A stretch of 64,000 bases of DNA from Gammaproteobacteria bacterium. GTDB taxonomy: Bacteria > Pseudomonadota > Gammaproteobacteria > JBCCGL01. The stretch spans positions 896,001-960,000 of the forward strand of contig OZ255836.1 of assembly GCA_965277715.1 (NCBI GenBank), in the 5' to 3' direction. Under the pieces are notes generated by a model. The model searched no databases and had not been told where the DNA came from. It worked only from the letters and a program-made list of their open reading frames with translations. Both the position numbers and the translations under genes were made by a program. The first letter of the stretch is position 1. Every line of letters starts with the position of its first letter. Shown piece by piece: positions 4,317 through 34,737 of this stretch.

Positions 4317-4399
4317 CGGGGAACGTTCTCCACACCCCGTGCGTGGCTACTTGTGCCGTACATAGACACATTAGTAATTCACAATAGGTTTTAAGAGAA

Positions 4400-5512: not shown

Positions 5513-6375
5513 TGTCTTCAACGCCTTCGCAGTTGTTGATTATTGGTGTTGGACTGATTGGTGGCTCGTTTGGGCTGGCGTTAAAGGCGGCGAATGCCAA
5601 TGTGGAAATTACCGGCACCGATCGGCGTGTCGATGCGTTGCAAAAAGCGGTTCAGCTCGGTGCAATTGATCGCTATGAAACGGACTTTGCCAAAGCGGCA
5701 GCGTGTGCCGATACGGTGATGTTAGCGGTGCCGATGACAGCGATGCGCACGGTATTGCAGGTTATTCGCCCCGCGCTCAAGGCAACGGCGGTGATTACCG
5801 ATGCCGGTAGCGTTAAGGGTAGCTTTGTCGATGATGCCCGCGAAGTGTTCGGCTGCCTGGATAATATCGTGCCCGGCCACCCGATTGCAGGCACTGAAAA
5901 CAGTGGGGTCGAATCGGCTTTTGCCACCCTATTTGAAAACCGCCGTGTGATTCTGACACCCACCGCAGAGACGTGCACCCACGCCGTTGAGCAGATTAAA
6001 ACACTATGGCAGTTATGCCGGGCCAGCGTTGAATTAATGGGGGTCGATAACCACGATGATGTGCTCGCCGCGACCAGCCATCTGCCGCATGTATTGGCGT
6101 ATTCACTGGTCGATACCCTGCTCGGTTTACCCCAGCACGAAGCTATTTTTCGCTATGCTGCAGGTGGTTTTCGCGATTTTTCCCGTATTGCATCGAGCGA
6201 CCCGACAATGTGGCGGGATATTTGCCTAAGCAACCGCGATAGCCTGTTGTCGGTGGTCGACTGTTTACAGACTAATCTCAGTGGCCTGCGCGAACTTATC
6301 GCCGATGGCGATGGCGAGGCGCTACACACCATTTTTTCACGCACCAAAAATGCGCGAGACAGGCATTACGAATAG
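5512..6375 (+). CDS. tyrA: Prephenate/arogenate dehydrogenase
   Basis: GVGLIGGS Rossmann motif, DAGSVKG, GHPIAGTE, SHLPH and GFRDFSRIASSDPTMWRDI. Confidence 0.92.
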   Translation: MSSTPSQLLIIGVGLIGGSFGLALKAANANVEITGTDRRVDALQKAVQLGAIDRYETDFAKAAACADTVMLAVPMTAMRTVLQVIRPALKATAVITDAGSVKGSFVDDAREVFGCLDNIVPGHPIAGTENSGVESAFATLFENRRVILTPTAETCTHAVEQIKTLWQLCRASVELMGVDNHDDVLAATSHLPHVLAYSLVDTLLGLPQHEAIFRYAAGGFRDFSRIASSDPTMWRDICLSNRDSLLSVVDCLQTNLSGLRELIADGDGEALHTIFSRTKNARDRHYE

Positions 6376-6438
6376 TGCCACGCCCTCTGCAATGGGTACG
6401 ATAAACAACTTTCCACTGTGACTTTATAGAGTTATTCA

Positions 6439-7797
6439 ATGTCAGCATCCACTCAATTTGTTATTACACCGGCCAAACTGTCGTCGACAAAAGGGGCATT
6501 ACAGGGAGAACTCCGTGTGCCTGGCGATAAGTCCATTTCGCACCGTTCGATCATGCTGGCATCTATCGCGCAGGGTGTCTCACACATCAGCGGTTTTTTA
6601 CAGGGCGAGGATAGCCTGAATACGCTGCGGGCGTTTCGTGCAATGGGCGTGAATATTCAGATGCCCTCGCAAGGCGAAGTGATTGTCCAGGGCGTGGGTA
6701 TGCACGGTTTACACCCCCCGGCAGCGCCGCTTTATCTGGGCAACTCGGGTACATCAATGCGCCTGTTGAGCGGTTTAATGGCGGGCCAGTCGTTTGCGGT
6801 TGAGTTGACGGGGGACGCATCCCTGTCGTCCCGGCCTATGCGGCGGGTTACCGATCCACTTGCGCAAATGGGTGCGTGTGTGGAAACCGACGAACAGGGG
6901 CGGCCACCGCTGAAAATATTACCCGGCAAAGTGGGGGATGGACACCCACTAAGCGCGATCGATTACACCCTGCCAATGGCGAGTGCACAGGTTAAATCGT
7001 GTGTGTTGCTGGCGGGTATGTACGCACAGGGCGTTACCCAGGTGCGCGAGCCGGGAGTCACCCGTGACCATACCGAGCGTATGCTGCAGGGGTTTGGCTA
7101 TCCACTGTCCATCCATCGAGGCCATGTCAGTCTCGAAGGTGGGCACGCTTTACAGTGCACTGATATCGATGTACCCGCCGATGTTTCCTCGGCTGCCTTC
7201 TTTATGGTGGCGGCTTCGCTGGTGCCTGGCTCTGATGTGTTGCTCAGGCAGGTCGGTGTCAACCCCACACGCACTGGCGCAATTGATATTTTGCGTTTAA
7301 TGGGGGCCGATATTGTGCTCGAAAACCCGCGCCAGTCTGGCGGCGAGCCGATTGCCGATATTCGCGTGCGCCACGCTAAACTCAAAGGCATTACCATTCC
7401 CGCCGACCTGGTGCCGCTGGCTATCGACGAATTCCCGGTATTGTTTGTAGCGGCGGCGAACGCCGAAGGTGAAACAGTGCTGACCGGGGCGCAAGAATTG
7501 CGCGTTAAGGAGAGCGACCGCATTCAGGCGATGAGTGATGGATTGCAGCAGCTGGGTGCACAGATACAACCTTTGCCGGATGGCGCCATTATTCAGGGGG
7601 GAAAGCGACTCAGTGGCGGTACGGTAGAGAGCTTTGATGACCACCGCATCTCAATGGCATTTGCCGTGGCGGGGTTACTCGCCGATGGTGAGGTCACTGT
7701 GCGCGGTTGCGATAACGTCAGCACCTCCTTTCCCGGCTTTGTTGCGCTCGCCGCAACCATCGGCATGACGATTACCGAAATAAATGAGGTGTACTGA
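6439..7797 (+). CDS. aroA: 3-phosphoshikimate 1-carboxyvinyltransferase (class II EPSP synthase)
   Basis: PGDKSISHRS, GNSGTSMRL, ASAQVKS, RDHTERML, ELRVKESDRI and DHRISM. Confidence 0.97.
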   Translation: MSASTQFVITPAKLSSTKGALQGELRVPGDKSISHRSIMLASIAQGVSHISGFLQGEDSLNTLRAFRAMGVNIQMPSQGEVIVQGVGMHGLHPPAAPLYLGNSGTSMRLLSGLMAGQSFAVELTGDASLSSRPMRRVTDPLAQMGACVETDEQGRPPLKILPGKVGDGHPLSAIDYTLPMASAQVKSCVLLAGMYAQGVTQVREPGVTRDHTERMLQGFGYPLSIHRGHVSLEGGHALQCTDIDVPADVSSAAFFMVAASLVPGSDVLLRQVGVNPTRTGAIDILRLMGADIVLENPRQSGGEPIADIRVRHAKLKGITIPADLVPLAIDEFPVLFVAAANAEGETVLTGAQELRVKESDRIQAMSDGLQQLGAQIQPLPDGAIIQGGKRLSGGTVESFDDHRISMAFAVAGLLADGEVTVRGCDNVSTSFPGFVALAATIGMTITEINEVY

Positions 7798-7800
7798 ACG

Positions 7801-8478
7801 GTGAACGCGCAGGTGCCGGTTATTACTATCGATGGCCCGAGTGGCTCTGGCAAAGGCACCGTTGCGCGCCTGCTCGCGGAACGCTATGGCTTTCACTTGT
7901 TAGACAGCGGTGCGCTGTATCGAATCACGGCGTTGGACGCTGAGCGCCGTGGCGTTGACCTGGACGATGAACAGGCGATTATCGATGTATCACTGTCGAT
8001 GCAGGTGACATTTGCACTGAATCAGGCTGAAGGTGTCTCGGTATTGCTGAATCAGGAGGATGTCACCACCCAGATACGGGCAGAAACCTGTGGTATGAAG
8101 GCATCACGGATTGCCTCAATGCCGGGCCTGCGCGCCGCTTTATTGGATGTGCAACGCCACTTTCGCCAACCCCCTGGGCTGGTCGCCGATGGCCGCGATA
8201 TGGGCACAGCCGTATTTGCCGATGCGCAAATCAAGGTGTTTCTTACAGCGAGTGCAGAACAGCGGGCATTAAGGCGATTTAATCAGTTGAAACAAAAGGG
8301 ATTCAAAACTACAATTGACAGTCTTTTGCGCGAGATATTGGCAAGGGATGAACGCGACCAGAATCGCACCTTGTCACCGTTGCGCGCAGCGGATGATGCA
8401 CATATTCTCGATTCGACGTCAATGACCGTTAATCAAGTCGAAGACAGGATAGTACAAATTATCGATAATCGTTTTTAA
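7801..8478 (+). CDS. cmk: Cytidylate kinase
   Basis: ITIDGPSGSGKGT P-loop, LDSGALYR and DGRDMGT; GTG start. Confidence 0.96.
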   Translation: MNAQVPVITIDGPSGSGKGTVARLLAERYGFHLLDSGALYRITALDAERRGVDLDDEQAIIDVSLSMQVTFALNQAEGVSVLLNQEDVTTQIRAETCGMKASRIASMPGLRAALLDVQRHFRQPPGLVADGRDMGTAVFADAQIKVFLTASAEQRALRRFNQLKQKGFKTTIDSLLREILARDERDQNRTLSPLRAADDAHILDSTSMTVNQVEDRIVQIIDNRF

Positions 8479-8599: not shown

Positions 8600-10270
8600 A
8601 TGTCTGAATCATTTGCGGAGATGTTCGAAGAGAGCCTCGCACGCACAATTATGCAACCCGGCTCTATCCTGGTCGGTACTGTTGTCGAAATTCGTAACGA
8701 TTACGTTATGGTCAATGCTGGATTGAAATCGGAAGGTGTCATCCCGATTGAACAGTTTTATGCCGAGAGTGGTACGCTGGAAGTGGCTGTCGGCGATACG
8801 GTAGAAGTCGCACTGGATGCTGTGGAGGATGGTTTTGGTGAAACCCGCCTGTCGCGTGAAAAAGCGCGTCGCGTACGCGCCTGGACCATGCTGCAGGAAG
8901 CCAGTGAGGCCGGTGACATTGTCAAAGGTATTATCACGGGCAAAGTCAAAGGCGGTTTTACTGTCGAAATGAGCGATATTCGCGCCTTCCTGCCCGGTTC
9001 GCTGGTGGATGTACGGCCTGTGCGTGATATGTCTTACCTGGAAGGTAAAGAGCTCGAATTCAAAGTGATCAAGCTCGATCAGAAACGCAACAATGTCGTG
9101 GTGTCACGTCGCGCTGTTGTGGAATCTGAATTCAGCGAAGAGCGTGAAAAACTGCTCGAAAACCTACAGGAAGGCCAGGAAGTCGACGGTGTGGTTAAAA
9201 ACCTTACCGATTACGGTGCGTTCCTTGATCTCGGTGGTATCGATGGCCTGCTGCATATCACCGATATGGCCTGGAAGCGGGTCAAGCATCCGTCTGAAGT
9301 CGTTGAAGTTGGCGAAGAAATCAAGGTTAAAGTCCTCAAATTTGATCGCGAGCGCAGCCGTGTTTCTCTGGGCCTTAAACAGCTTGGTGAAGATCCCTGG
9401 GCCGATTTAAAACGTCGCTATCCTGAAAACACCCGTATGTTTGGTAAAGTGACCAATATTGCCGATTACGGTTGTTTTGTTGAAATCGAAGAGGGTGTTG
9501 AGGGTCTGGTGCACGTCTCCGAGATGGACTGGACCAACCGCAATACCAACCCGGCCAAAGTGGTGGCACTGGGCGACGAAGTGGAAGTGATGATTCTGGA
9601 TATTGATGAAGAGCGTCGTCGTATTTCACTGGGCATTAAACAGTGCCAACAAAACCCCTGGGATGAGTTTGCACAAAACTTCAATAAAAATGACAAAGTC
9701 TCTGGCAAGATCAAATCGATCACCGATTTTGGTATTTTTATCGGTCTGGATGGCGGCATCGACGGTTTGATTCACTTCTCTGACTTGAGTTGGAACGACA
9801 CCGCCGGTGAAGAAATTGCCCGCAATTACTCCAAAGGTGATGAACTGGAGGCGGTTGTTTTGGCTGTTGACCCTGAGCGTGAACGCATTTCACTGGGGGT
9901 TAAACAACTGGATCGCGATCCTTTTGGCCAGTATGTCGCGGATAACCCCAAAGGCAGTATTGTTAATGGTGTTGTCACTGAAGTGGAGGCAAAATTTGCC
10001 ACAATAGAACTGACTGAAGATATCGAAGGTGTTTTGCGTGTCAGTGAGTGGTCGCGTGACCGTGTCGAAGACATGCGCAATGAGCTAAAAGTGGGTGAAT
10101 CTATTGAAGCAAAATTTATCGGTATTGATCGAAAGTCCCGAAAAATCCAGCTATCAGTGAAAGCCAAAGACAGCGATGCCGAGGCAGAGGCCATTAGTGA
10201 CTACAGTCAATCGTCAATTGCCCCGGTAACCACACTGGGTGATTTGATGAAAGAACAAATGCAAAAATAA
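8600..10270 (+). CDS. rpsA: 30S ribosomal protein S1
   Basis: Start [12 protein letters not shown] at 8600; six S1 repeats (e.g. [20 protein letters not shown]). Confidence 0.98.
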
Positions 10271-22895: not shown

Positions 22896-24959
22896 ATGTC
22901 TACCGATCCACCACAGTATTTCGTCCGGCCACAGAATAAGCCGTTTAAACTGGAAAAGAAATTTGAACCGGCGGGCGATCAGCCGGAGGCCATCAAAGTG
23001 CTTAACGACGGTATGGATGATGGCCTGGCTTTCCAAACCCTGCTGGGGGTAACCGGCTCCGGTAAAACCTACACCATCGCCAATGTCATTCAACAACAGC
23101 AGCGACCGGCGATTGTGCTGGCGCCAAACAAAACACTCGCCGCGCAGTTATACGCTGAAATGAAAGCCTTCTTTCCACACAACTCTGTCGAGTATTTTGT
23201 TTCCTATTACGATTACTACCAACCGGAGGCCTATGTGGCGGCCTCTGACACTTATATCGAAAAAGACGCCTCGGTCAACGAGCATATCGAGCAGATGCGC
23301 TTATCGGCGACCAAGGCACTCTTTGAACGGCGGGATACGATCATCGTCGCCACCGTCTCGGCTATTTATGGATTGGGCGATCCGCGTTCGTACCTGAAAA
23401 TGCTCCTCCACGTAGTGCGCGGTGACCAGATTGACCAACGGCAAATCCTGCGCCGACTCGCTGAATTGCAATACAAACGCAACGACCTTGAACTGCAGCG
23501 CGGCACTTACCGGGTGCGCGGTGAAATCATTGACATCCACCCAGCGGATTCGGATCGCGAGGCGGTGCGCATCGAACTATTCGATGATGAAGTGGAAAAC
23601 CTCTCCTATTTCGACCCGCTCACGGGAGAAGTGTTGCGGCGCGTGCCACGGCTCACCATCTACCCTAAAACCCATTACGTGACACCGCGTGAAACCCTGA
23701 TAGGCGCCATCGAACAAGTTCGCGTCGAATTGGCAGAGCGCCTGGCACAATTGTATGAAGCCAGCAAGCTACTCGAAGCACAACGCCTGAAAGAGCGCAC
23801 GCAGTTTGATATCGAGATGATCAGTGAACTGGGCTATTGTTCGGGTATTGAAAACTACTCGCGCTACTTGTCCGGTCGGCAGGCGGGCGAGCCACCGCCG
23901 TGCCTGTTCGACTATCTACCGCAGGATGCCATGTTATTTATCGACGAAAGCCATGTCACCGTACCGCAGCTCGGCGCGATGTATAAAGGTGACCGCTCGC
24001 GCAAGGAAAACCTGGTGATGTATGGTTTTCGCCTGCCATCAGCGCTGGATAACCGCCCGCTGCGGTTTGATGAATTTGAGCAGCTATCGCCACAAACCAT
24101 TTTTGTCTCGGCAACACCGGGCAACTATGAAGCGGCCCATGCCGATGCCGTGGCCGAGCAGGTGGTGCGGCCTACCGGCCTGGTCGATCCCGAGCTGGAA
24201 GTGCGACCGGTGGCGACTCAGGTCGATGATGTACTATCAGAAATTAATTTGCGCGCGGCAAAAAATGAACGTGTGTTGATAACAACACTGACCAAACGCA
24301 TGGCAGAAGACCTGACCGAATACCTGGCCGAACACGGCGTGCGGGTGCGCTATCTACACTCAGATATCGATACCATCGAGCGGGTCGAAATTATCCGTGA
24401 TCTGCGTTTGGGGGAATTTGATGTATTGGTGGGGATTAACCTGCTGCGTGAGGGTTTGGATATGCCTGAAGTCTCGCTAGTGGCGATTCTCGACGCAGAC
24501 AAAGAGGGCTTTTTACGCTCTGAACGCTCGTTGATCCAAACCATTGGCCGTGCCGCACGCAACCTTAATGGCAGAGCTATTTTGTATGCCGACTCGATAA
24601 CGGGGTCGATGCAACGCGCTATAGATGAAACAAACCGGCGGCGCGAAAAACAACAGCAATTCAACCAGCGGCATGGCATTACCCCCAAGAGTATCGCCAA
24701 AGATGTCGGTGATATTCTCGAAGGCGTGTACTCCAACGCCTCGCATAACCAGCGCGAATATATCCTCAGAGTGGCGCAGGAAGAGGCTGAATACGTTGCC
24801 AAATCACCCGCGCAAATGCTGCGCGAGATTAAGCAACTGGAAAAGACAATGTACCAGCACGCACAGGATCTGGAATTTGAAGAAGCCGCCGCATTGCGCG
24901 ACAAAATTGCCAGAATGCGGGAAAAAAGCCTCAATATGCCGGCGATTAAAAGTGCCTAA
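22896..24959 (+). CDS. uvrB: Excinuclease ABC subunit B
   Basis: [51 protein letters not shown] and C-terminal [11 protein letters not shown]. Confidence 0.98.
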
Positions 24960-25345: not shown

Positions 25346-26671
25346 TCAAAAGAACTCATCAAAATTCACCTGCCAGGTGCCGTAAATCCGTGTCGAGTCA
25401 GCTGTCCCTGCATAGTCACTAACACCGATATTGACATTCGCACCAACAAAAATTCGACCTGTGCCCAATACACCTATAGGTAATTGAAAGCGAAATTCCG
25501 CTCGTCTGCCCCGAACCCTCTCGGTTTTCCCATACAGGATATCCAGATAAGCCTCGGGACTGCTTGCGAATCGATAACCGATGTAGTTTTTGCGAATCAC
25601 CGAATTACTCCCATCGACGCGGCTTAGCGAAGTGGCGACGATTGGCCCAAGCGCTAATGCCCCCACACTTTGCACAACGCCCTCATTGGCAAAGAACACA
25701 TTGAGATCTAATTCGAGCGCCTCCTCCACTGTCGAGTTAGCTGTATTCTGACCCAGATTTTCACTCTCACCCGTAGTCGTTAAGAGTATATTGCCAAAGT
25801 AGTGTAGATCGTCGAATGGCCCCCATATATCACATTTTTTGACATCCTTGCGATTGCCGAAGGGGCCGCAAATCTGACTGTAAGCCATAAAACCGACGCG
25901 GGTGGTATTGCGATTTTCCAACTGACTATTTGTAGCGCCCTCAAAGCCAGCATAAAAGCTGTAAAAGCGATCTTTACCCCAGTCTATAAGTTTAAGTGGC
26001 GTATTGGCGGTGAAAGCACTGGTGCTCCTCAACGTCTTTTGCGCCTCTTGATAAAATTTTTGTGAATCAGAACCAGGTTTCAATATACTTTGAGTTATAA
26101 TGTAGTTTTGTACAAGCTCCAACTGATTTCGTAGTACCTCGCGTTTATCTTTTGAGGGGTTATCGGCTATAGATTGGTCACAGGTTTGCATTAAGGTTTG
26201 AAAATCTTCCAGAGACCGATTTGATGTCGCCTTTTCGTTAATGGTAATTTGTTTCATCAACTGGACTTTAAATGCCTCTGGCCGGGTTAAGCATTGTTCA
26301 CCTTGATGCTTAAGCCCCGGTTGTTTATCCAGCTTATCAAAAACCATTTTTAGCGCTGTATACGCAGCATCGTAAACACCCTTATTCTCTGTATCTTGTT
26401 TGCTGGATGTAGTCAGGTAACCAAGCATATTCTGCAGCTCAAACTGTAACGCCTCTTGCTGCTGCTTGATAAGATCCTTCGCTATTACTTGTTCACAGGC
26501 GTTTAATTTACTCTTAAATTTGTTTATTGGTTCATTCTCTGTTTTGAGCAGCTCAACTAATTTGTCTTTAAATTCTGCTGGTTGGTTTAGGCACTGGGAA
26601 CTGTCATTTGCCAAGCCGACCAGTGGGATAATAAAAACAGCTACCGATAAAACTATTGAAATAATATACAT
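25346..26671 (-). CDS. Hypothetical exported protein: two tandem Cys-paired helical repeats and a probable C-terminal beta-barrel
   Basis: Signal peptide; repeats QCLNQPAEFK...CEQVIA and QCLTRPEAFK...CDQSIA; amphipathic strands; ends GTWQVNFDEFF. Confidence 0.7.
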   Translation of the reverse strand: MYIISIVLSVAVFIIPLVGLANDSSQCLNQPAEFKDKLVELLKTENEPINKFKSKLNACEQVIAKDLIKQQQEALQFELQNMLGYLTTSSKQDTENKGVYDAAYTALKMVFDKLDKQPGLKHQGEQCLTRPEAFKVQLMKQITINEKATSNRSLEDFQTLMQTCDQSIADNPSKDKREVLRNQLELVQNYIITQSILKPGSDSQKFYQEAQKTLRSTSAFTANTPLKLIDWGKDRFYSFYAGFEGATNSQLENRNTTRVGFMAYSQICGPFGNRKDVKKCDIWGPFDDLHYFGNILLTTTGESENLGQNTANSTVEEALELDLNVFFANEGVVQSVGALALGPIVATSLSRVDGSNSVIRKNYIGYRFASSPEAYLDILYGKTERVRGRRAEFRFQLPIGVLGTGRIFVGANVNIGVSDYAGTADSTRIYGTWQVNFDEFF

Positions 26672-26698
26672 GACTGTTTTCTCCTATTCTCCTATTGG

Positions 26699-27652
26699 TT
26701 AGAACCGGTACGCGTTAGCACGCGCATCAAATGTCATACCGTTAAGTGTTTCTACCCGCTTGCCATTCAGCGCCAAATTAAAAAATTCTTTAACGACATC
26801 GTTGGTCTCCTCGTAAAAAACGCCGTGGGTATTGCCGACATAGGGGCCATTGCTGAAATCGTAATACCTGGCGTTGGCAGCATTGAGGTTTTTAAAGGTA
26901 TTGCCGAGTCGACCAGGTTGAAAATTGATATCCGACCAACCGAGAGTTTTGTCATTTTCGTTAATAGTGATGTAAATGCGGCGCCCACTGTTAATATTTT
27001 CCACCCAGTCGCGGTGGCCACGGTTATCTACATCCGCCTGACAGAGAACGATATTTTCAAAAATCTGCGTTTCCTCATTGTACAAATTACTCTCGACATA
27101 GTTTTTTAGGAGTAAATTTCCCAGGCTATACGCCATGAGGGAAAAGCGGGTTTCGCAGGCTTGCAACGCAGATAAATTAAACGGTTGGTGCAGGTACGCC
27201 CCCAGTTTCTCGAGTGTTTTATCCAGTGCGCCGGCAGAAGCCAAGGCCATACGTTTAGCATCGCGGTATTCAGAAATAACTAAACCACCGGGATTCGACG
27301 GCCATGAAAAAACAATTACCTCAACACCGTAACGCTGTTGAATTCGCCAGCCCTTTTTCAAACTCTTCTTAAAGGACTGCCTAAATCCGTGAACCAAAAA
27401 AACGCAGTTTTTACTGTCGCGTAACAGGGATTCGCGCAGCGAACGGAATTGTTGTTCCGAGGCCAGTTTGCCTGTTTTTCTGTCAATCTCGTCAAGCAGC
27501 TCGACGCGCCATTGACCGTCTAATTTATCCACCTTAGCCAGGCGAATCTCGTTGGGGTTGACTATATTTAGTTGATCGCCAAAAGCCCGGTGGTCGCCGA
27601 TACCGCCCGATAAATTACGGTCATTAATGTTTCTATTGGTAATTACAAGCAT
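26699..27652 (-). CDS. DUF900-like alpha/beta hydrolase
   Basis: VITNR, FLVHGF, FSWPS, nucleophile elbow AYSLGN, QADVD, N.ND.TL and GRLG; RBS AGGAG before ATG 27652. Confidence 0.8.
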   Translation of the reverse strand: MLVITNRNINDRNLSGGIGDHRAFGDQLNIVNPNEIRLAKVDKLDGQWRVELLDEIDRKTGKLASEQQFRSLRESLLRDSKNCVFLVHGFRQSFKKSLKKGWRIQQRYGVEVIVFSWPSNPGGLVISEYRDAKRMALASAGALDKTLEKLGAYLHQPFNLSALQACETRFSLMAYSLGNLLLKNYVESNLYNEETQIFENIVLCQADVDNRGHRDWVENINSGRRIYITINENDKTLGWSDINFQPGRLGNTFKNLNAANARYYDFSNGPYVGNTHGVFYEETNDVVKEFFNLALNGKRVETLNGMTFDARANAYRF

Positions 27653-28006
27653 AATAGTCTCCTGTTCAATATAATGGGTTGGTCGGTGCATCGTCCTGAC
27701 ACACCGACCGTGAAAGTGGCTCTCATCATCACTGGCCAGCTCTTGCTGGAGATAGACATTCCACCTCCCCTCTCCCTGGGGTGAACCACCTTCGTTTATC
27801 GCGATCAATCCCGTTGAACGCGGGACGACCATATCTGGCCATCACTTCTTATCGCACCGCTCAAGCACTGCGCTGCAATTCGATGAAGACAGAGTAAATA
27901 GGTGGCGTGAGTTCAGAAGTTAAAGTAATGCAAGTAAATCGTGATTTTTCCAGGTTGAAAGTACCTCCACGGCCAATCACAGCCTAATTGACTATTTGAT
28001 TTACCC

Positions 28007-28209: not shown

Positions 28210-28378
28210 TAGGAGTCTGTCGGATTTAGGGCTGCTCTACTGCGGAAAAGCCGATTTGGCCCTTTTTTTGCGCACTGTTTCGTCAAATAGAACCACTATG
28301 TTCCTCAATAGTGCGCAAAAAAAATGACTCAAATCGGTCTTTCCTTCGCTACGGGCGCCTAAACCCGACAGGATCCTG
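28210..28378. mobile_element. 169-bp MITE-like palindromic element
   Basis: 21-bp imperfect terminal inverted repeats (TAGGAGTCTGTCGGATTTAGG / CCTAAACCCGACAGGATCCTG), long internal inverted arms, and partial copies at 14312-14376 and 52919-52974. Confidence 0.7.
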
Positions 28379-28413: not shown

Positions 28414-30456
28414 ATGCCTACCTGGAAAATTCAACTGCTTGGAGAATTCCGCTGTGTGACGCCGGACACCAGCGAGATCATATTGCCCGGGCGAAAGCAC
28501 CAGGCTCTATTTGCCATCGTGCTACTGGCGAAGAGCCGCAGCATCACCCGCGAGCGGTTATTGGATTTACTTTGGGGGTCGCGTTCTGAGGATCAGGCAC
28601 GCGCCAGCCTGCGTGGTGTGCTCAGTGAAATCCGGCGCGCCTGCCGCCCGTATGGCGGCTGCCCCATTCAAGCCAATCGAACACATGTAGCATTGGCTGC
28701 CGAGCCTGGTGTCGATGTCGATACCGATCTGCTGTACAGCGCTATACAACGCGATGACCCGCAAATCTATGCGGCGGCAAGTTATCTCAACGCCGCAGAG
28801 CTGTTGACGTCACTCAAAATCAACGAACGCGCTTTCGAACAATGGAAGGAAACCGAACAGACCAACTTACTGCGCAGCTACCGTAGTGCACTGATCCAAT
28901 ACCTTGCCACACTTGAGAAAGACAGACACGCCGAGGACATTGAGCGCGTTGCCAACTGCCTGCTGGGTGTCGACGATACCGACGAAGATGCCCATCGTAC
29001 GCTGATGCAGCTCTATCATTTTCGTGGTAACCACTCGCTGGCCCTGCGACAGTTTGAGTTGTGCGAGAGTCGTCTGAACGCGCTGTACGGCTCTTCGGTT
29101 TCGCAGGAGACACGGGTGCTCGCCCAACAAATCAAAACCACTCCGCAGCCTTTGCCAGAGACTGAAACCCTCACTGCTTCAAACCCAACGACAATAGCGA
29201 CAAAGCAGCCCGGTAAACCGCCCGGTGTCGCACTGGCGGTGATTCCATTTACACTGCCGCCGGGAGCGGATATCGACGTTGGTATTACCAGCTTTTGGGC
29301 CGAAGAAATCGCGGGCGCCGCCAGCCGTTTTAAGTGGTTTCGCGTGGTGCCCACCAGTGAAACTTTTCGCCTGGACGTGCGGGCGCTCGGTGCCAGTGGG
29401 GTAAGCGCCGCTACCGGCGCCAAGTACGTGCTCGGGGGGCGCTGCCGGGTACTACCCGAAGGCTACAAACTTACAGTGGAGCTGGCCGACGGGGTTAATA
29501 CGGAAACAGTCTGGAGTGAACTCATTACTTTGTCGCCACAGGCTTTGCTGGAACCTGGGGAAGTGTTAGAGAAAGTCGTCGGGAAATTGGACATTAAACT
29601 GCGCGCCAGTGAAATACGGCTGGCCTACCAGCTGGATAGAAACACGCTGAACGGCTATGAATGCACCCTGCTGGCGCTATCGAATATGTATGATCTCACC
29701 GCAACCACTTACCAGGAAACTGAGCTACTGTTCGACCGTGCAGTGTGCCTAAACCCCAATAGAGCCTGGTTTTATTCCTTCTGGTCGCTGTGGAAAATGT
29801 TTTGCCTGGGGCAAGACTGGGCGAAAGACCACGCCGAGGAGCTGCATACCGCTGGAAACCTGGCACGCCAGGCAATCAAGCACGACCCGGACGATGCATT
29901 GGCGCTGGCGATACTCGGCTATTTCACCTCCTTTTGGGATCATAACATCCTGCAGGGCCGCAAATATCTTGATCAGTCACTCAGTCTGAATCCCTATTCA
30001 TCATTGGCCTGGGTGTTGAGTGCAGCGACCTATTCCCACTCCGGCAAACCACAAGAGGCTCTGCGACGACTGGCAAAATCCCGTGCGCTGTGCCCTATAG
30101 AACCTCACTTCGAGTTTCTATACAACACTGCACACTGCATCGCACACCTGTTTAGCCATGACCCCGCCCAGGCATTACCCTGGGCTTACGATATCGTGCG
30201 CGGCAACCCTGGGTTTACCAATGGCTACAAGCACCTGCTGGTAGCCCTGGGGCACCTTGAGCAGCTCGCCGAATGCCAGCGCTATATACGTCAGCTACTG
30301 CAACTGGAACCGGATTTCACCATTGGCAAATTCATTGGCAACTATCCGTTCGCCAATGAGGAGGACCGCCAGTTTTACTGCGAAGGCCTCCGCCGTGCCG
30401 GGGTTGCGGCGGGCAAAGCCAGCGCCACGCTAATGTTGTTGCCTGACGCTGGTTAA
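28414..30456 (+). CDS. SARP/AfsR-like transcriptional regulator (winged helix, BTAD, TolB-like and TPR domains)
   Basis: IQLLGEF...RKHQAL...TRERLLDLLW...QARASLR..LSEIR; BTAD motif DEDAHRTLMQLY...ALRQFE; LAVIPF...F.WFRVV; C-terminal TPRs ending EGLRRAG. Confidence 0.85.
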   Translation: MPTWKIQLLGEFRCVTPDTSEIILPGRKHQALFAIVLLAKSRSITRERLLDLLWGSRSEDQARASLRGVLSEIRRACRPYGGCPIQANRTHVALAAEPGVDVDTDLLYSAIQRDDPQIYAAASYLNAAELLTSLKINERAFEQWKETEQTNLLRSYRSALIQYLATLEKDRHAEDIERVANCLLGVDDTDEDAHRTLMQLYHFRGNHSLALRQFELCESRLNALYGSSVSQETRVLAQQIKTTPQPLPETETLTASNPTTIATKQPGKPPGVALAVIPFTLPPGADIDVGITSFWAEEIAGAASRFKWFRVVPTSETFRLDVRALGASGVSAATGAKYVLGGRCRVLPEGYKLTVELADGVNTETVWSELITLSPQALLEPGEVLEKVVGKLDIKLRASEIRLAYQLDRNTLNGYECTLLALSNMYDLTATTYQETELLFDRAVCLNPNRAWFYSFWSLWKMFCLGQDWAKDHAEELHTAGNLARQAIKHDPDDALALAILGYFTSFWDHNILQGRKYLDQSLSLNPYSSLAWVLSAATYSHSGKPQEALRRLAKSRALCPIEPHFEFLYNTAHCIAHLFSHDPAQALPWAYDIVRGNPGFTNGYKHLLVALGHLEQLAECQRYIRQLLQLEPDFTIGKFIGNYPFANEEDRQFYCEGLRRAGVAAGKASATLMLLPDAG

Positions 30457-30475
30457 TCATCTGCCGCACAATCGC

Positions 30476-32521
30476 TTAACTGGCAACGGTATTAGCACTC
30501 GATGCCGCTGAACCATGCCTCAAATACAAGCCCTTATAACGAGGCTTTGGCCGATGCTCTTTTGTCGGCATAAACCGGGGTTTAAGCTGATAGAGCTGGA
30601 TTGGCCTACCCCGAAAGCAGGTAAACCCGATAGTGAAGACAAAGCGGATATCCACGCCTTGTTGCCCTCTTTTACACACTGCCTGCGATGATGGTCTGGC
30701 TGACGGGCGCTCACCGGAACCAGTAAAGAACCGTGGGCTTATCCATACCTTGGCCTCGCGCCGCGACGATACAAACACCGTTTCCCATGTGCTGCTGCCG
30801 TCGTCGGTCGCCCGTCGACATTGAACAGCGGTGGTAACTTTTGTGTCGATACCTGCGGGCAACATGCCAGACCAGTCAAAATACAAATAATGACTGTCTT
30901 CACGCACTTTATAGACCAGGGCGTTCTTTGGCTTGCCCTTAATCGGTTGTTGACTATTAAAAGCGGAGGCTATTTTTTCATCCAGAGCAGAGTGAATCGA
31001 GGTAAAAGTATCATGTCCCCCCGATTCCCCATAGGCATCGACCACTACGCCGTCGATCATAAGGTACAGTCGCTGCAGTAGCTTATCTGCCGCACCGGTC
31101 AAGGTCACCTGAAACAAGCCAAAAGGGTGGCGCGGATCACTCCCTGGCCTGCGAAAATAGACCGACTGCGCCTGGTTCCACATCGATTGTGCGCTAATCG
31201 GGCCAATATTATCGAAATCCGCGTATACCCTGACCCTGGAGGCCGCCTGGCTACCCGGTTTTGCAGTAATATAGTTAGACTTGACGGTGTGTAGAATTTG
31301 CCCCTGCTTTCGATCCAGGTTGTATTGGCATATCACTGTCCAGGCCTGATTTTGTGAGTTATTGATAAAATTGCCATCGGATATCTCTTTCAACTGATCG
31401 TAAATACCCTTATAGGTATAGGCGCTGAGCCATTGCGGATGGCGATACGTCATCAGGTCGAACCAGCGGTTGTGCGCAAGCACACGAGGTGATCTGCTGG
31501 CTGGTCTGCCCACATTGAGGCCAAGATGAGTATCGGCTTCCCCCGTATTGACCGATAGATGCCCGTACTTGCTGGTTAACGTTGAGGGGTTTGGGTCTGA
31601 CCGATGCTGACCAATAGCGGCACCGTGATCCTGCACCAGAGGAACCCCCGGGTGTTGCCGCCCGAGGATGTGCGCCAGTTCGTGGGCGCCAACCAGGCCG
31701 GTATCATCCACCGCCCCGACCGCGACGGCGTGAGTACTGGCAAACATAGGGGCATCCATCGCCACCCCGCCGAACCGATCTTCAGGGTCGACAAAAACAC
31801 CCAGGTAAAATGTGCGCGTATTCTCCCTGCCATTATCGCTATCGATCTCATCCGCCCGGTGCAGCAGTGTTTGCCTGAGTAGGTTAGCCATCATCCGGGT
31901 GGCGCGCTCTTCGTGCGGTACCTCCCATTGATCGACCCGGTTGAGTGCACGAAATGCCTGGTCGACCTGTACCGGTACTGTACTCCAACCGACCGTAGCG
32001 ACGGGGAAAGCGCGTTCGATATAATCCCGAATCAACTCGACCTGTTCATGGCTCGGCTCAAGATAGACACGATTGTGTTTATCCGGGTAGCGAAATACCA
32101 ATACCCGGCAGGATAAAGTGTAGTGCGGACTAACCATCACGGAAACAACATCGGATGTACCCAGCACGACATCGCTGCCTGTTAATTCAGTCAACTTAAG
32201 GCTTATTTTTCCGGGGGTTTCGACAACAGCGGCGGGCAGTTTAAAGTGCAGGGAATTGCTCCAATGTATTCGCTGTAGCGACAACGAGTAATCCAACCCT
32301 GCTGACCAGTGCACGGGTTCACTGGGGATCGTATTATGTGTGACCCCGTTGACCTCAATTTGCAGTTTACCCGCCAAGGTCAAATTCCTATCGGGTCGAA
32401 ACGGTGAAAAATAGACACGTGCGAATGTGCATTTACCTGCTATTAGTGGTACTTCGTTGTTGGCATTTTGGATTGCCTGGACAACTTCAATATGTGAAAC
32501 ATTAACTATTTTTGGATCCAT
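30476..32521 (-). CDS. Metzincin zinc metalloprotease (M66/StcE-like N-domain), no signal peptide
   Basis: IEVVQAIQ...VPLIAGK.T.ARVY; HELAHILGRQH (HExxHxxGxxH); Met-turn DLMTY..PQWLSAYTY; RBS AGGAG before ATG 32521. Confidence 0.78.
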   Translation of the reverse strand: MDPKIVNVSHIEVVQAIQNANNEVPLIAGKCTFARVYFSPFRPDRNLTLAGKLQIEVNGVTHNTIPSEPVHWSAGLDYSLSLQRIHWSNSLHFKLPAAVVETPGKISLKLTELTGSDVVLGTSDVVSVMVSPHYTLSCRVLVFRYPDKHNRVYLEPSHEQVELIRDYIERAFPVATVGWSTVPVQVDQAFRALNRVDQWEVPHEERATRMMANLLRQTLLHRADEIDSDNGRENTRTFYLGVFVDPEDRFGGVAMDAPMFASTHAVAVGAVDDTGLVGAHELAHILGRQHPGVPLVQDHGAAIGQHRSDPNPSTLTSKYGHLSVNTGEADTHLGLNVGRPASRSPRVLAHNRWFDLMTYRHPQWLSAYTYKGIYDQLKEISDGNFINNSQNQAWTVICQYNLDRKQGQILHTVKSNYITAKPGSQAASRVRVYADFDNIGPISAQSMWNQAQSVYFRRPGSDPRHPFGLFQVTLTGAADKLLQRLYLMIDGVVVDAYGESGGHDTFTSIHSALDEKIASAFNSQQPIKGKPKNALVYKVREDSHYLYFDWSGMLPAGIDTKVTTAVQCRRATDDGSSTWETVFVSSRREAKVWISPRFFTGSGERPSARPSSQAVCKRGQQGVDIRFVFTIGFTCFRGRPIQLYQLKPRFMPTKEHRPKPRYKGLYLRHGSAASSANTVAS

Positions 32522-33305
32522 TACATACTCCTGTAGATAAATTGTATCGAGCAGCACGGGTGCCACGTCGGGCAGCCCATTTGCGCTCATCGCGAAAACC
32601 GAAATTTTCCTGGTATTGAGCGGGTTGCGCCCAGTGAGATCCTGGTCGCGCCAACGTGGTGAAGCAATCACTGAGCACCTTGTGCATATCCCAGTTGATG
32701 CACTCCTGGCGGATACACAGTAGATCGTGCTTATCCGCGAGCGTGCGCATCACAGTGGCGTTGACGCTGATATCCCGATAAGAGGCCAGTAACGACATAC
32801 GCTGATCGCTATGCGCAATTGCCGCCTGGTAGTAGTAGCCCGCATTGGAGTGATGCAAAAACGCCACCCCATTTGGGCTCAGCACTCGTTGCAGTTCGCA
32901 CGTGTAGGCGTTAAGCGTGTGCGCGTCGGCGCCCACCAGCGAGTAGAAACTGATTGCCAGATCGACGCTGTTATCTGCGACACCGCGCAGCGACTCACCA
33001 TCACCCTGCAAACAACGGACAGTTGGCCTGCTCTGGAAAGCGCGTTGGCAGGCGTGAACACAGTCGGGCATGATGTCAACCAGCACCAGTTCACGCGTCG
33101 CATAGGGATATAGCAGACGGCCAATACGACCGTGGCCAGCGCCGATTTCGAGGATGCGTGCAGCGGGCAGATAGTCGCGGAGTCGCGGGTACAGCGAGGT
33201 ACACCACATAGCCCGCGCCCCTCCCCAAGGTGCCGACCAGGCCTGCGTAGAGCAGGCCCAATCGAACGTTTGGTAGTAGGCTTTGTTTTCCGCTACCGAT
33301 CCCAT
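32502..33305 (-). CDS. Class I SAM-dependent methyltransferase
   Basis: ILEIGAGHGR, LVDI, DNSVDLAISFYSLV and RVLSPNGVAFLHHSN. Confidence 0.85.
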   Translation of the reverse strand: MGSVAENKAYYQTFDWACSTQAWSAPWGGARAMWCTSLYPRLRDYLPAARILEIGAGHGRIGRLLYPYATRELVLVDIMPDCVHACQRAFQSRPTVRCLQGDGESLRGVADNSVDLAISFYSLVGADAHTLNAYTCELQRVLSPNGVAFLHHSNAGYYYQAAIAHSDQRMSLLASYRDISVNATVMRTLADKHDLLCIRQECINWDMHKVLSDCFTTLARPGSHWAQPAQYQENFGFRDERKWAARRGTRAARYNLSTGVCNGSKNS

Positions 33306-33348
33306 GATGGCACCCGATTGGAAAACACCTGCACACAACGCAATATAA

Positions 33349-34317
33349 TCACAGCCACTCCTCACGCGCCCTATCCATGAGTTCCTTAAAGGTTTGATTG
33401 CTTTCTCCCAGCGCCCATATTTTTTCCGCCAGCGCTTTTCCCGCCTCAGAGTCGGAGCGATAGTGCACCCCGGCCCATTCACGATTAGCACTCACTTCGT
33501 CGGCAATAAACTCAATATTCGCCTGTGGAATAATGTCACGCTCTGCATTGATAACCGCATTTAGCGCCCTCGCCACCAGGTGCACCTGGGTGGCGTGGCC
33601 ACTTGGGTAAGCGTAGTGTGCCGGTACCAGAATGGTGGGTTCCAGGTCTTTATCGCGCTGTGAGGGGCGCGGGCGATGGTAGTGTAGTTTCCATGGCATC
33701 ACGATAAACTCGGCGAGAAAACCCAAGGTGTCGATCAGGCGCAGGGTTTGGGCATGCACATGTGGATCAATGCCCAGCGCATACATAAAACGCGTCGTAT
33801 AATCGTTCTCCTCTTCGATAATATCCTGCACCCGCTGCTCGCGTTCCGGGTGTTCCTGCATCCAAAACAATTCGTTGAGTTCGTTTTGTGTGCCAGCCTC
33901 ATCGGGATACGGGGGAACATACAGGGCAGCCGTGTTGTTCAGTGTTGTTTGACCCGGAAATGGTAATTCCACCTCTGGCAGCTTTAAAAACATTGCCACA
34001 TACACCAAGTCCCGCCACCCTACGTGGGTGCGTACACGCGGCATATCGACGTAATTCTCCTGGTCGTCATCATCCGCTTCCAGTACCAATCGCCGCGCCA
34101 TAGTCATAGTCATTGTCATGGTTCTGTCCATGGTTCTGTTCATGGTTCCGTTCATGGTGCGCGGTAGGTGCCGCTCAAAAGCCTGTAGATCGTCGTCATC
34201 CAGTACACCACCCTCGTAGAGTTGTTGGGTCATCGTGTCAAAGTCGGGCAGTTGTGTTTCAACATTCGCATCGATAGAGTGCGGTGTGCTGGTGTGTTTG
34301 CTGGTATTGCTAGTCAT
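33349..34317 (-). CDS. Soluble PAP2/vanadium-haloperoxidase-superfamily enzyme with a Met-rich N-terminal repeat
   Basis: KLHYHRPRP (motif 1), YPSGH (motif 2) and NREWAGVHYRSD (motif 3); no TM helices; RBS AGGAGG before ATG 34317. Confidence 0.85.
   Translation of the reverse strand: MTSNTSKHTSTPHSIDANVETQLPDFDTMTQQLYEGGVLDDDDLQAFERHLPRTMNGTMNRTMDRTMTMTMTMARRLVLEADDDDQENYVDMPRVRTHVGWRDLVYVAMFLKLPEVELPFPGQTTLNNTAALYVPPYPDEAGTQNELNELFWMQEHPEREQRVQDIIEEENDYTTRFMYALGIDPHVHAQTLRLIDTLGFLAEFIVMPWKLHYHRPRPSQRDKDLEPTILVPAHYAYPSGHATQVHLVARALNAVINAERDIIPQANIEFIADEVSANREWAGVHYRSDSEAGKALAEKIWALGESNQTFKELMDRAREEWL
34099..34161 (-). repeat. Intragenic tandem repeat encoding RTMNGTMNRTMDRTMTMTMTM
   Basis: About 3.5 copies of the 12-nt unit ACCATG(A/G)AC(A/G)GA, followed by three copies of AC(A/T)ATG. 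Confidence 0.9.
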
Positions 34318-34418
34318 ACTTATTTGCCTCCTGTTGGCAGGTCCTGTTAAAAGGCCATTGTGATAGGCCGGGGAGCAGTGTAATGCGCACCGGGTGCTTG
34401 AAAAGCCCCAGGTAGGAG

Positions 34419-34447
34419 AACTTGCGGAGTTCTTGCGTTTTTCTTGC
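34419..34447 (-). promoter_or_regulatory. Candidate SARP-type operator: three heptamers at 11-bp periodicity
   Basis: The minus strand reads GCAAGAA-aaac-GCAAGAA-ctcc-GCAAGTT about 100 bp upstream of the PAP2 start. Confidence 0.55.
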
Positions 34448-34737
34448 AAGTGCACTTTAAGGACGAAAGGGTGGGTTTTTTACGCCGTCAATTTAATCTG
34501 AATTAAGCAGTTGGGTTGTGGCGGGAAGATTTGCCGCGTGTACCCGCTACCATTCCACCGATCAGACACACTGGCCACCATTGTTGATACCAAAGTGCTT
34601 TGGCCGGGGGCACAGGTGCCTGTTGAGGTGGTGAAGTCGGCGGAAAGTATGCCTGATCGGCGGGGGTGGCACTTTATACCGTGCAATAGTCCCGCTATCT
34701 GTGCAAAATACGCGGCCCGTTAATTGCGTGACTATGT

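Follow-up and report, generated by a model that had tools for sequence, protein, structure and literature searches.

The described systems that come closest to the locus reported here are the BURP-domain peptide cyclases, the borosins and the RRNPP regulators. In the plant BURP-domain cyclases (lyciumin and stephanotic-acid type), tandem core peptides lie N-terminal to the enzyme domain in the same polypeptide and are released by proteolysis; in the borosins (OphMA type), an enzyme and its substrate peptide also share one polypeptide, methylation depends on S-adenosylmethionine (SAM) and the protease is separate; and in the RRNPP family (Rap, NprR, PlcR, PrgX and AimR), a TPR regulator is genetically paired with a protease-processed peptide. 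Each of these features has a counterpart in a four-gene locus (positions 28414 to 34317) of a 64,000-nucleotide stretch of gammaproteobacterial contig OZ255836.1 (hereafter the window), where a PAP2-superfamily enzyme bearing a peptide repeat in its N-terminal extension is encoded beside a methyltransferase, a metzincin-like protease and a TPR-containing protein; the proteolytic processing is predicted in the present case. In contrast to this module, which has a PAP2 enzyme, units of 2-3 residues and a co-encoded protease and TPR protein, the BURP cyclases are copper-dependent, eukaryotic and secretory and cyclize their own cores. Similarly, in the borosins the methyltransferase is the fused enzyme and the core is C-terminal, whereas here it is the PAP2 enzyme that is fused, the repeat is N-terminal, and the methyltransferase is a separate protein present in 7 systems only. 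In the RRNPP family, the pro-peptides are separate small products that are secreted and taken up again, and the cognate regulators use an XRE-type helix-turn-helix; here, by contrast, the peptide lies within a predicted cytoplasmic enzyme without a signal peptide, the DNA-binding domain is of the winged helix-turn-helix (wHTH)/BTAD type or is replaced by a cyclase domain, and a TolB-like domain precedes the TPR region. The comparison with RRNPP regulators that was drawn in an earlier note on this DNA is an analogy only; nothing is secreted here.

We regard the locus as a system of a new kind, assembled from known domains and set apart from RRNPP and from fused-precursor pathways for peptides that are made on the ribosome and modified after translation (RiPPs) by its enzyme, its lack of secretion and its type of regulator. 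From comparative sequence analysis, we lean towards the reading that the locus holds the local, Met-type form of a module that is conserved and cytoplasmic, in which the repeat would be a processed substrate peptide coupled to a TPR sensor. The four genes and the elements within them are as follows.

28414..30456, plus strand: BTAD-TPR signal-transduction partner, 680 amino acids (Pfam BTAD and TPR_17).
30476..32521, minus strand: metzincin-like zinc peptidase of an uncurated family, 681 amino acids from the ATG at 32521; the longest open reading frame (ORF) is 30476-32671 (731 amino acids).
32502..33305, minus strand: class I SAM-dependent methyltransferase, 267 amino acids from the ATG at 33305; the longest ORF is 32502-33491.
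33349..34317, minus strand: soluble PAP2-superfamily enzyme, 322 amino acids, with a repeat in the N-terminal extension; the longest ORF is 33349-34455.
33427..33717, minus strand: PAP2 catalytic core, residues 201-297, with KX6RP, PSGH and RX5HX3D (Pfam envelope and invariant columns).
34099..34158, minus strand: peptide repeat, residues 54-73 (Tandem Repeats Finder, and alignment to the homologous loci L001-L004).
34159..34251, minus strand: leader-like segment, residues 23-53, LPDFDTMTQQLYEGGVLDDDDLQAFERHLPR (conserved in gammaproteobacterial homologues).

The minus-strand operon runs from the PAP2 gene through the methyltransferase gene to the protease gene, whose stop (30476) faces the stop of the plus-strand gene (30456) across 19 bp in a convergent arrangement. 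The ATG of the PAP2 gene at 34317 is preceded, 8-9 nucleotides upstream, by an AGGAGG Shine-Dalgarno sequence. Homologue alignments place the protease start at 32521, which gives an overlap of 20 nucleotides with the methyltransferase stop, and the methyltransferase start near 33305, the homologues of this enzyme beginning to align at residue 56-63 of its long ORF; in the stored gene call it has 287 amino acids, corresponding to a GTG start at 33365. Averaged over 19 residues, Kyte-Doolittle hydropathy peaks at 1.38 across the four proteins, which fits proteins that possess neither a signal peptide nor a membrane segment; throughout this work, these features were judged by such means.

Relatives of the PAP2 enzyme were collected by a motif-seeded scan of one genome per prokaryotic species, which gave 147 confirmed matches; the best 80 by similarity, with 10-kb flanks, form the sample to which the locus counts below refer. 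Partner genes were detected by tblastn with the window proteins, by all-against-all clustering of the neighbourhood ORFs and by profile searches of six-frame translations, and a repeat was scored where an open frame N-terminal to the PAP2 domain held a unit of 2 or 3 residues in three or more exact tandem copies. As first counted, 55 loci possess the repeat, a protease and a TPR partner together. Three loci (L043, L073 and L074) have the repeat and the TPR partner but no protease by this count; in L043, a separate S8 gene lies just upstream of the TPR gene, so that the full set is present in 56 of the 80 loci, and in L073 a transposase lies downstream. A further three (L005, L025 and L046) carry the repeat and a protease without a TPR partner, with the PAP2 gene at the contig end in each. 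A protease alone accompanies the PAP2 gene in two loci (L030, which is cut by the contig end, and L071) and a TPR partner alone in another two (L014 and L016, considered below), and 15 loci lack all three. These 15 loci, mostly from Verrucomicrobiota and from metagenome-assembled genomes (MAGs) of candidate phyla, serve as an internal control: in a tree of the PAP2 domain (MAFFT and FastTree, read without support values), the repeat-bearing members form one clade and the 15 fall outside it. They are for the most part putatively secreted or membrane-anchored proteins, and six of the 15 score hydrophobic N-termini in the hydropathy scan. The full set spans Alpha- and Gammaproteobacteria and at least one Chloroflexota MAG, and the module also occurs in 77 plasmid records, mostly rhizobial. 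The earlier note had reasoned that homologues without repeats and without conserved linkage to a protease or regulator would speak against a peptide-modification or signalling system; the opposite was found, with an N-terminal tandem di- or tripeptide repeat in 61 of the 80 loci and the full protease and TPR linkage at the frequency given above. This supports the view that the repeat-bearing enzyme, the protease and the TPR regulator work as a single functional unit.

Close relatives of the window PAP2 protein are few: a collection of 5.8 billion proteins gave 43 matches to it, nearly all of them unnamed; no NCBIfam model covers the PAP2, A4, S8-fusion or TPR members; and the only RefSeq names for members are 'phosphatase PAP2 family protein', 'S8 family serine peptidase' and 'SARP family transcriptional regulator'. 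In the literature, no description of a repeat-PAP2/protease/TPR module was found, in agreement with the earlier note, to whose author no characterised pathway of such an architecture was known.

The repeat of the window reads TMNG-TMNR-TMDR-TM-TM-TM-TM, that is, seven Thr-Met units, the first three of which are spaced by two extra residues; Tandem Repeats Finder reports it as 3.6 copies of period 12 and as 3.5 copies of period 6. It lies in an acidic N-terminal extension of approximately 130 residues and is flanked by DDDD runs. In the first homologue alignment, AMAMAMAM, SMSMSM, TMTMTM, NMNMNM and TKTKTK stood at the position of the window repeat, and L001-L004 carry (TM)8, (AM)6, (SM)10 and (MS)10, respectively, aligned with it. 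Across the sample, the dipeptide units are TK (13 loci), SR/RS (5), RG/GR (4), SK (3) and NR (2), together with TM, AM, SM, MS, GM, MT, GH and TH in one locus each; the tripeptide units are A/T/S/V-GN (7 loci), NEG (6) and MGD (5), together with SGS, NEA, TDA, DGA, NGM, NMG, NRG and GGR in one locus each. The plasmid copies of Rhizobium and Aliiroseovarius carry (NK)9-10. Met-richness is not a general trait of the family: it characterises a single sublineage, whereas the unit types number about 20 in all.

It is worth noting how these arrays are encoded. In L005, the 13 SR units are written in 13 different hexamers that draw on both Ser and both Arg codon families; in L009, the 14 RG units are built from 10 hexamers; most arrays use 3-6 hexamers, and the Rhizobium NK array mixes AAC/AAT with AAA/AAG codons. 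Because the units use mixed synonymous codons, the repeat is held by selection at the amino-acid level, and DNA slippage was rejected as a sufficient origin of the repeats for the same reason. In most alphaproteobacterial members, the array begins directly after Met1. In the gammaproteobacterial clade, to which the window belongs, the array follows a leader-like segment with the consensus LPxxxxMxxQLxxNGVxxxxDxxAxD...P....R, which ends in a hydrophobic residue, Pro or Asp, and Arg immediately before the first unit.

The protease of the window carries the zinc motif HELAHILGRQHPG, including HELAHILGRQH, which fits the HExxHxxGxxH pattern of metzincins. All 14 homologues compared carry H280, E281, H284, G287, H290 and P291, and the H, E, H and H positions are invariant in an alignment of 68 sequences, at least 90% of whose rows also keep M357 (within D-L-M-T-Y), 67 residues after the third His. 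The HExxHxxGxxH(P) motif is shared with serralysin, karilysin and the matrix metalloproteinases, and the conserved downstream Met is a candidate for the Met-turn of metzincins. The likeness to metzincins ends there, however: no significant similarity extends beyond approximately 20 residues (the PDB matches, to serralysin and karilysin, cover the motif only, with best E values of 0.013-0.03), a large N-terminal domain beginning IEVxQxIQ is present, and the protein is predicted to be cytoplasmic. No Pfam, NCBIfam or PADLOC family matched the 731-residue ORF. The family is large, with 4467 representatives at E ≤0.001 and 271 at 1e-30; its first ~500 positions also occur in other architectures, and the broader metzincin-like family is also found in other contexts. 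A reverse search from the protease to PAP2 among metagenome contigs returned 13 loci, most of them only remotely related (23-24% identity). Among the close relatives, L084 alone comes with upstream sequence, and a PAP2 motif is present there; L083 begins at a contig edge.

Another finding is that the protease of a given locus belongs to one of three unrelated families. The HExxHxxGxxH type is present in the window and in 14 of the 80 loci, always just downstream of the PAP2 gene or of the methyltransferase gene. Peptidase_S8 is found in 23 loci, 19 of which encode it as a C-terminal fusion to PAP2, the two sharing a frame of 700-950 amino acids. Peptidase_A4 (eqolisin) is encoded by the next gene downstream of PAP2 in 23 loci. 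The catalytic residues are intact in these families as well, the D, H, N and S of Peptidase_S8 being kept in 19/19 and the Q and E of Peptidase_A4 in 11/11. In addition, the period of the unit tracks the protease, with tripeptides in 21/21 A4-linked loci and dipeptides in 35/37 loci linked to an S8 or a metallo-type protease. Characterised eqolisins are secreted acid proteases; in the hydropathy scan, the Peptidase_A4 homologues at L042 (10621-11655) and at 22 other loci possess no N-terminal hydrophobic segment, and a cytoplasmic eqolisin role at neutral pH would be unusual.

The plus-strand gene encodes a protein with a BTAD domain (27.6 bits against a cut-off of 22.1, E 4.2e-6) and TPR_17 (E 9e-7), together with a match to Trans_reg_C that lies below threshold (15.6 against 26.2 bits, E 0.018) and represents a weak OmpR-type wHTH. 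It is thus a SARP-type regulator by its BTAD domain, with a subthreshold wHTH match. A TolB/FlgO-like middle region (approximately residues 270-400) precedes the C-terminal TPR domain, and the maximum hydropathy is 1.28. The homologue in Rhizobium, which RefSeq names 'SARP family transcriptional regulator', aligns to the window protein over the wHTH and TPR regions. A profile of the TPR-partner relatives matches 62 of the 80 PAP2 loci. The gene usually stands immediately upstream of PAP2 on the same strand; in the gammaproteobacterial loci, it is convergent and lies downstream. What is conserved is the C-terminal two-thirds, comprising the TolB/FlgO-like region and the TPR repeats, and the N-terminal output domain varies: among 51 TPR partners, Trans_reg_C was found in 17 (counted at E up to 0.01), BTAD in 14 and a class III Guanylate_cyc domain in 16. 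Genes for Crp-like regulators that bind cyclic nucleotide monophosphates lie nearby in 10 of the 80 loci.

The PAP2 enzyme of the window matches Pfam PAP2 (PF01569) with 30.4 bits against a cut-off of 27.2 (E 3e-7). All three signature motifs, KX6RP, PSGH and (S)RX5HX3D, are present, and K210, R217-P218, P238-S239-G240-H241, R279, H285 and D289 (numbering of the 322-residue protein) are intact and invariant in 15 sequences. With a profile of the family, the best solved-structure matches are acid phosphatases: 7f17/7f18 at E 6e-22 and PhoN at E 8e-13, with the whole domain covered. With the vanadium bromoperoxidases, the match is confined to the motif region and has E values of 2e-10 to 1e-8. 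Because the acid-phosphatase matches are the stronger, a phosphatase or phosphotransferase is the likelier chemistry; since the residues do not discriminate a phosphatase from a haloperoxidase, the shared anion-binding site would also permit vanadate chemistry. Class A non-specific acid phosphatases (PhoN/PhoC type) are secreted or periplasmic proteins of ~230-250 amino acids with an N-terminal signal peptide. The window enzyme has their catalytic motifs in common but differs from them in its lack of a hydrophobic N-terminus (maximum 19-residue mean 1.19) and of a signal peptide, in its length of 322 amino acids, in its repeat and leader-like extension, and in its placement in a protease/TPR module; the NCBIfam PhoC model gives it 15.8 bits against a cut-off of 430. 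A second family, PF22778, is listed for these proteins in precomputed annotation, and the Pfam scans made here did not reproduce the match. A 2026 paper (PMC13431035) describes several 'diffusible PAP2 clades', with PDB 7F17 as an example and with contexts that suggest roles in biological conflict, and states that relatives of the PAP2 fold can perform nucleotidyl transfer; the main text of that article makes no mention of repeats, TPR partners or proteases for these clades. A side observation concerns the Reyranella and related A4-type members (L017:8933-10720, L020:8798-10597, L019, L028 and L038), in which an inserted domain of ~400 amino acids with no Pfam family separates the PAP2 core from the (NEG)n tail and the DRVDLPF motif of that tail.

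The middle gene of the window matches Pfam Methyltransf_25 (9e-13) and Methyltransf_11 (2e-12). Strong profile matches to this type of methyltransferase (E <1e-50) are confined to the window, L001-L004, L012 and L018, whose units are TM, TM, AM, SM, MS, GM and GH, so that Met is present in six of the seven. The earlier note had described three tightly packed minus-strand genes lying tail-to-tail, 19 bp from a SARP-like activator with a C-terminal TPR domain; a PAP2 site with intact K..RP, PSGH and R.....H...D motifs; a SAM methyltransferase and an HExxHxxGxxH protease; enzymes devoid of signal peptides; and an acidic N-terminal extension with a Met-rich tandem repeat. This description agrees with the ORF coordinates, the invariant columns, the domain matches, the hydropathy means and the repeat search reported here.

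Other loci bring further enzymes. A homocysteine S-methyltransferase gene (PF02574, 7e-45) stands between the protease and TPR genes in L001 (14267-15172, minus strand), L002, L003, L004 and L012; it is absent from the window, where only the 19 bp separate these genes. It is a matter of speculation that PF02574 and the SAM methyltransferase together hint at methyl-sulfonium (S-methylmethionine-like) chemistry on the Met units. A homologue of protein arginine methyltransferases (PRMTs) adjoins the TPR gene on the minus strand in L009 (15177-16268), L010 (7123-8094) and L007 (15143-16114). The first two of these loci carry (RG)14 and the third (RS)17, and the homologue occurs in no other of the 80. 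It matches Pfam PRMT_C at 2.9e-14, its best PDB matches are PRMT8, 2, 1 and 6 and CARM1 at ~4e-27 over residues 47-317, and its double-E and THW loops align with the PRMT structures. Two of the three source MAGs are titled Granulosicoccaceae and one Candidatus Spongiihabitans. The pairing of a PRMT with RG is otherwise familiar from eukaryotic RNA-binding proteins. The eukaryotic enzymes acting on RG/RGG are likewise paired with such sequences, as the homologue is here with 14 Arg-Gly or 17 Arg-Ser units, but these loci are bacterial and operon-linked, the relation of enzyme to substrate would be a predicted one, and the window has no PRMT gene.

In 67 plasmid records of Rhizobium, Sinorhizobium and Neorhizobium, the trio of SARP, PAP2 and S8 genes is succeeded on the same plasmid by a gene that RefSeq lists as 'HEXXH motif-containing putative peptide modification protein'. 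In one of the plasmid loci (L081, Rhizobium leguminosarum bv. viciae 248 plasmid pRle248e, 4539-10980), this HEXXH gene comes directly after the S8 gene; another (L082, Aliiroseovarius sp. M344 plasmid, 3757-8122) consists of a SARP regulator, a PAP2 protein with an NK repeat and an S8 peptidase. In the PAP2 copies of both, PSGH reads PSNH. Homology between the HEXXH protein and the window protease was considered and rejected, with an hhalign probability of 0.5%. Finally, in all but one of the 13 (TK)n systems, the gene directly upstream of the TPR gene codes for a conserved protein of ~177 amino acids (L044:7401-7934) that belongs to no Pfam or NCBIfam family; the remaining system, L025, starts at a contig end.

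Because the family shares a PAP2-fused repeat, an obligatory protease of whichever class, optional modifying enzymes suited to the repeat and a TPR sensor with exchangeable outputs, the repeat is likely to serve as a substrate whose processing is linked to signalling. The proposal of the earlier note that the repeat is a substrate or core peptide is strengthened by the mixed codons, by the pairing with intact proteases and, in some sublineages, by the composition-matched accessory enzymes. Linkage, selection at the peptide level, replacement of the protease, alternative outputs, matched accessory enzymes and intact catalytic residues are the observations from which we infer every biochemical step of the following scheme. 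The class I methyltransferase would modify the Thr-Met units. The metzincin-like protease would cut out or trim the repeat, acting at or within the array, with a cut site probably beside the hydrophobic-Pro/Asp-Arg junction that immediately precedes the first unit. Either the state of the tail or the released peptide would be read by the regulator through its TPR module, and the wHTH-BTAD domain would control transcription, plausibly that of the convergent PAP2 operon. For the catalytically intact PAP2 domain, phosphoryl transfer or hydrolysis is the most probable activity, with the tail (in cis) or a small phospho-compound by which the process would be gated as its substrate; no other step of the scheme is as uncertain.

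Several points weigh against this scheme of a processed substrate and a TPR sensor. The model has its main gap in what the PAP2 domain does: the repeat unit types have no residue in common, which makes a single side-chain chemistry for the shared PAP2 domain hard to propose. The methyltransferase is not strictly matched to Met, as L018 has it with GH units and L022 has MT units without it, and the methyltransferase-bearing systems make up only two subclades of the PAP2 tree. The correlations of accessory enzymes with units and of proteases with unit period are confounded by shared ancestry, and therefore represent few independent events. L014 and L016 keep the TPR partner in the absence of both the repeat and a protease. 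A promoter and terminator scan gave no signal above shuffled controls. Finally, the survey is itself a selection, namely the best 80 of 147 confirmed matches from a motif-seeded, similarity-ranked scan, in which the ORFs were called naively by script.

It is possible, though improbable in our judgement, that the locus is instead a fused-precursor RiPP pathway, in which a multi-copy core would be tailored (methylated here) and excised whole or as di- or tripeptides, the product would be bioactive or exported, and the BTAD-TPR protein would be a mere pathway activator. With its leader-like segment, repeat, linked protease and linked modifying enzymes, the predicted architecture is compatible with such a pathway: the repeat is fused to an enzyme and, in the gammaproteobacterial clade, has the leader-like segment ahead of it; dedicated proteases are encoded; and the gene linked to the Rhizobium systems is named a putative peptide modification protein by RefSeq. 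SARP-type regulators are also typical cluster activators. The PRMT-like enzyme of some loci points in the same direction, as the closest bacterial relatives of the eukaryotic PRMTs are described, in a review (PMC3417536), as peptide methylases in secondary-metabolite operons. On the other hand, the neighbourhoods hold no conserved exporter or immunity gene, the only transporter cluster being an Opp/Dpp-type ABC ATPase in 11 of the 80 loci at variable distance and on either strand; a third of the TPR partners have a cyclase rather than a DNA-binding domain, which suits a sensor more than it does a cluster activator; the shared PAP2 enzyme has no known RiPP chemistry; and the unit types offer no common modifiable residue.

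The preferred reading of a substrate peptide coupled to a TPR sensor can be carried further, to an intracellular peptide-coded signalling system. The lineage-private repeat might be written by matched modifying enzymes (through methylation of Met or Arg, among others), cut by the dedicated protease in the register of the units and read in register by the TPR solenoid, with a phosphoryl-transfer state of PAP2 as the input and transcription or a cyclic nucleotide as the output. This extension is tentative and is put forward as a long shot.

A different view is that the enzyme is a latent effector in conflict or stress, that is, a potentially harmful, broad cytoplasmic PAP2 phosphatase or phosphotransferase which is silenced by its tail until the protease removes the tail on a cue relayed by the TPR protein. 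The nearest solved relatives are non-specific acid phosphatases that normally work outside the cytoplasm, whereas the window enzyme lacks a signal peptide, and the module has low-GC neighbours between uvrB and yciO in the window, another position in the genome G001 and a plasmid location in rhizobia; the diffusible PAP2 clades with conflict-like contexts of PMC13431035 may also be cited in its favour. We nevertheless regard it as unlikely. The outputs of the TPR partners are transcriptional or cyclic-nucleotide domains and not effector domains; the precise, lineage-specific repeat units and the composition-matched linked enzymes are left unexplained; and in a PADLOC scan of six window proteins, the sole match was that of the methyltransferase to mad2 (2.5e-11), over a generic methyltransferase region.

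Vanadium haloperoxidases have a larger, two-bundle helical architecture of 450-650 amino acids. The haloperoxidase or oxidation chemistry that the earlier note had envisaged, in which a vanadate-dependent enzyme oxidises or halogenates the Met-rich repeat, is now very unlikely. The phosphate- or vanadate-binding residues common to both enzyme types are indeed intact, and the profile does match the bromoperoxidases, but that match is confined to the motif region and is far weaker than the whole-domain similarity to acid phosphatases; moreover, the repeats of most members contain no Met, His or other oxidisable residue, and the enzyme is cytoplasmic by hydropathy. Coincidence, namely an ordinary phosphatase with a neutral low-complexity linker beside unrelated genes, might be argued from the window alone, where only tight packing ties the genes and two neighbours are indeed unrelated passengers, but it is hardly tenable, being contradicted by the comparative data (the three parts recurring together across the loci, the 19 PAP2-S8 fusions, and the codon heterogeneity that shows selection on the peptide).

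If the preferred reading of a processed repeat coupled to a TPR sensor is true, then a widespread module, which has no curated family and no description that we found, exists in at least 56 species-representative genomes among the 80 loci and in the 77 plasmid records, and it would represent a new way either of making ribosomal peptide products or of sensing peptides within the cell. A first function would also be provided for cytoplasmic PAP2 enzymes, cytoplasmic eqolisins and the large class of wHTH-/cyclase-TolB-TPR proteins of Alphaproteobacteria. Its unusual traits are the selected, lineage-specific repeats fused to an enzyme, the three interchangeable protease families, the TPR sensor with interchangeable outputs and the bacterial PRMT beside RG. 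Since cultured carriers exist (for example Rhizobium leguminosarum bv. viciae 248, Reyranella soli NBRC 108950, Labrenzia sp. OB1 and Sulfitobacter sp. JB4-11), the idea is directly testable.

As to the genomic setting, the four genes are flanked by uvrB (22896-24959) and by the yciO/Sua5-scpA-scpB block (from 34738). The UvrB of the window is 73-75% identical to that of the four MAGs with the closest systems, L001 being from a Granulosicoccaceae MAG. In G001, the system is located away from uvrB, and in rhizobia it is carried on plasmids or chromids. The non-uvrB site in G001, the low-GC passenger genes of the window and the rhizobial plasmids point to a module that moves from genome to genome. 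A stretch of 44-49% GC (25346-27832), located between uvrB and the four genes, holds a gene for a 441-residue protein of no known kind (25346-26671, minus strand) and one for a DUF900 alpha/beta hydrolase (26699-27832, minus strand). Both were ruled out as parts of the system, as they recur in 1/80 and 0/80 loci, respectively, and they look like separate island cargo.

One further element lies upstream of the operon.

34415..34436, minus strand: two-copy direct repeat with 11-nucleotide spacing, GCAAGAACTCC GCAAGTTCTCC on the minus strand; a weak candidate operator.

This repeat is located ~100 nucleotides upstream of the PAP2 start, and L001 has a different pair (9844-9865) at a similar distance. 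An 11-nucleotide spacing is typical of SARP/OmpR-type operators; as a candidate operator, the element is a weak one, with two copies that may have arisen by chance. In addition, nested long inverted repeats are present at 28244-28344, with 28-nucleotide arms that are 79% complementary and 26-nucleotide arms that are 77% complementary. They lie immediately upstream of the BTAD-TPR gene, within the divergent intergenic region, and could be an operator or an RNA structure.

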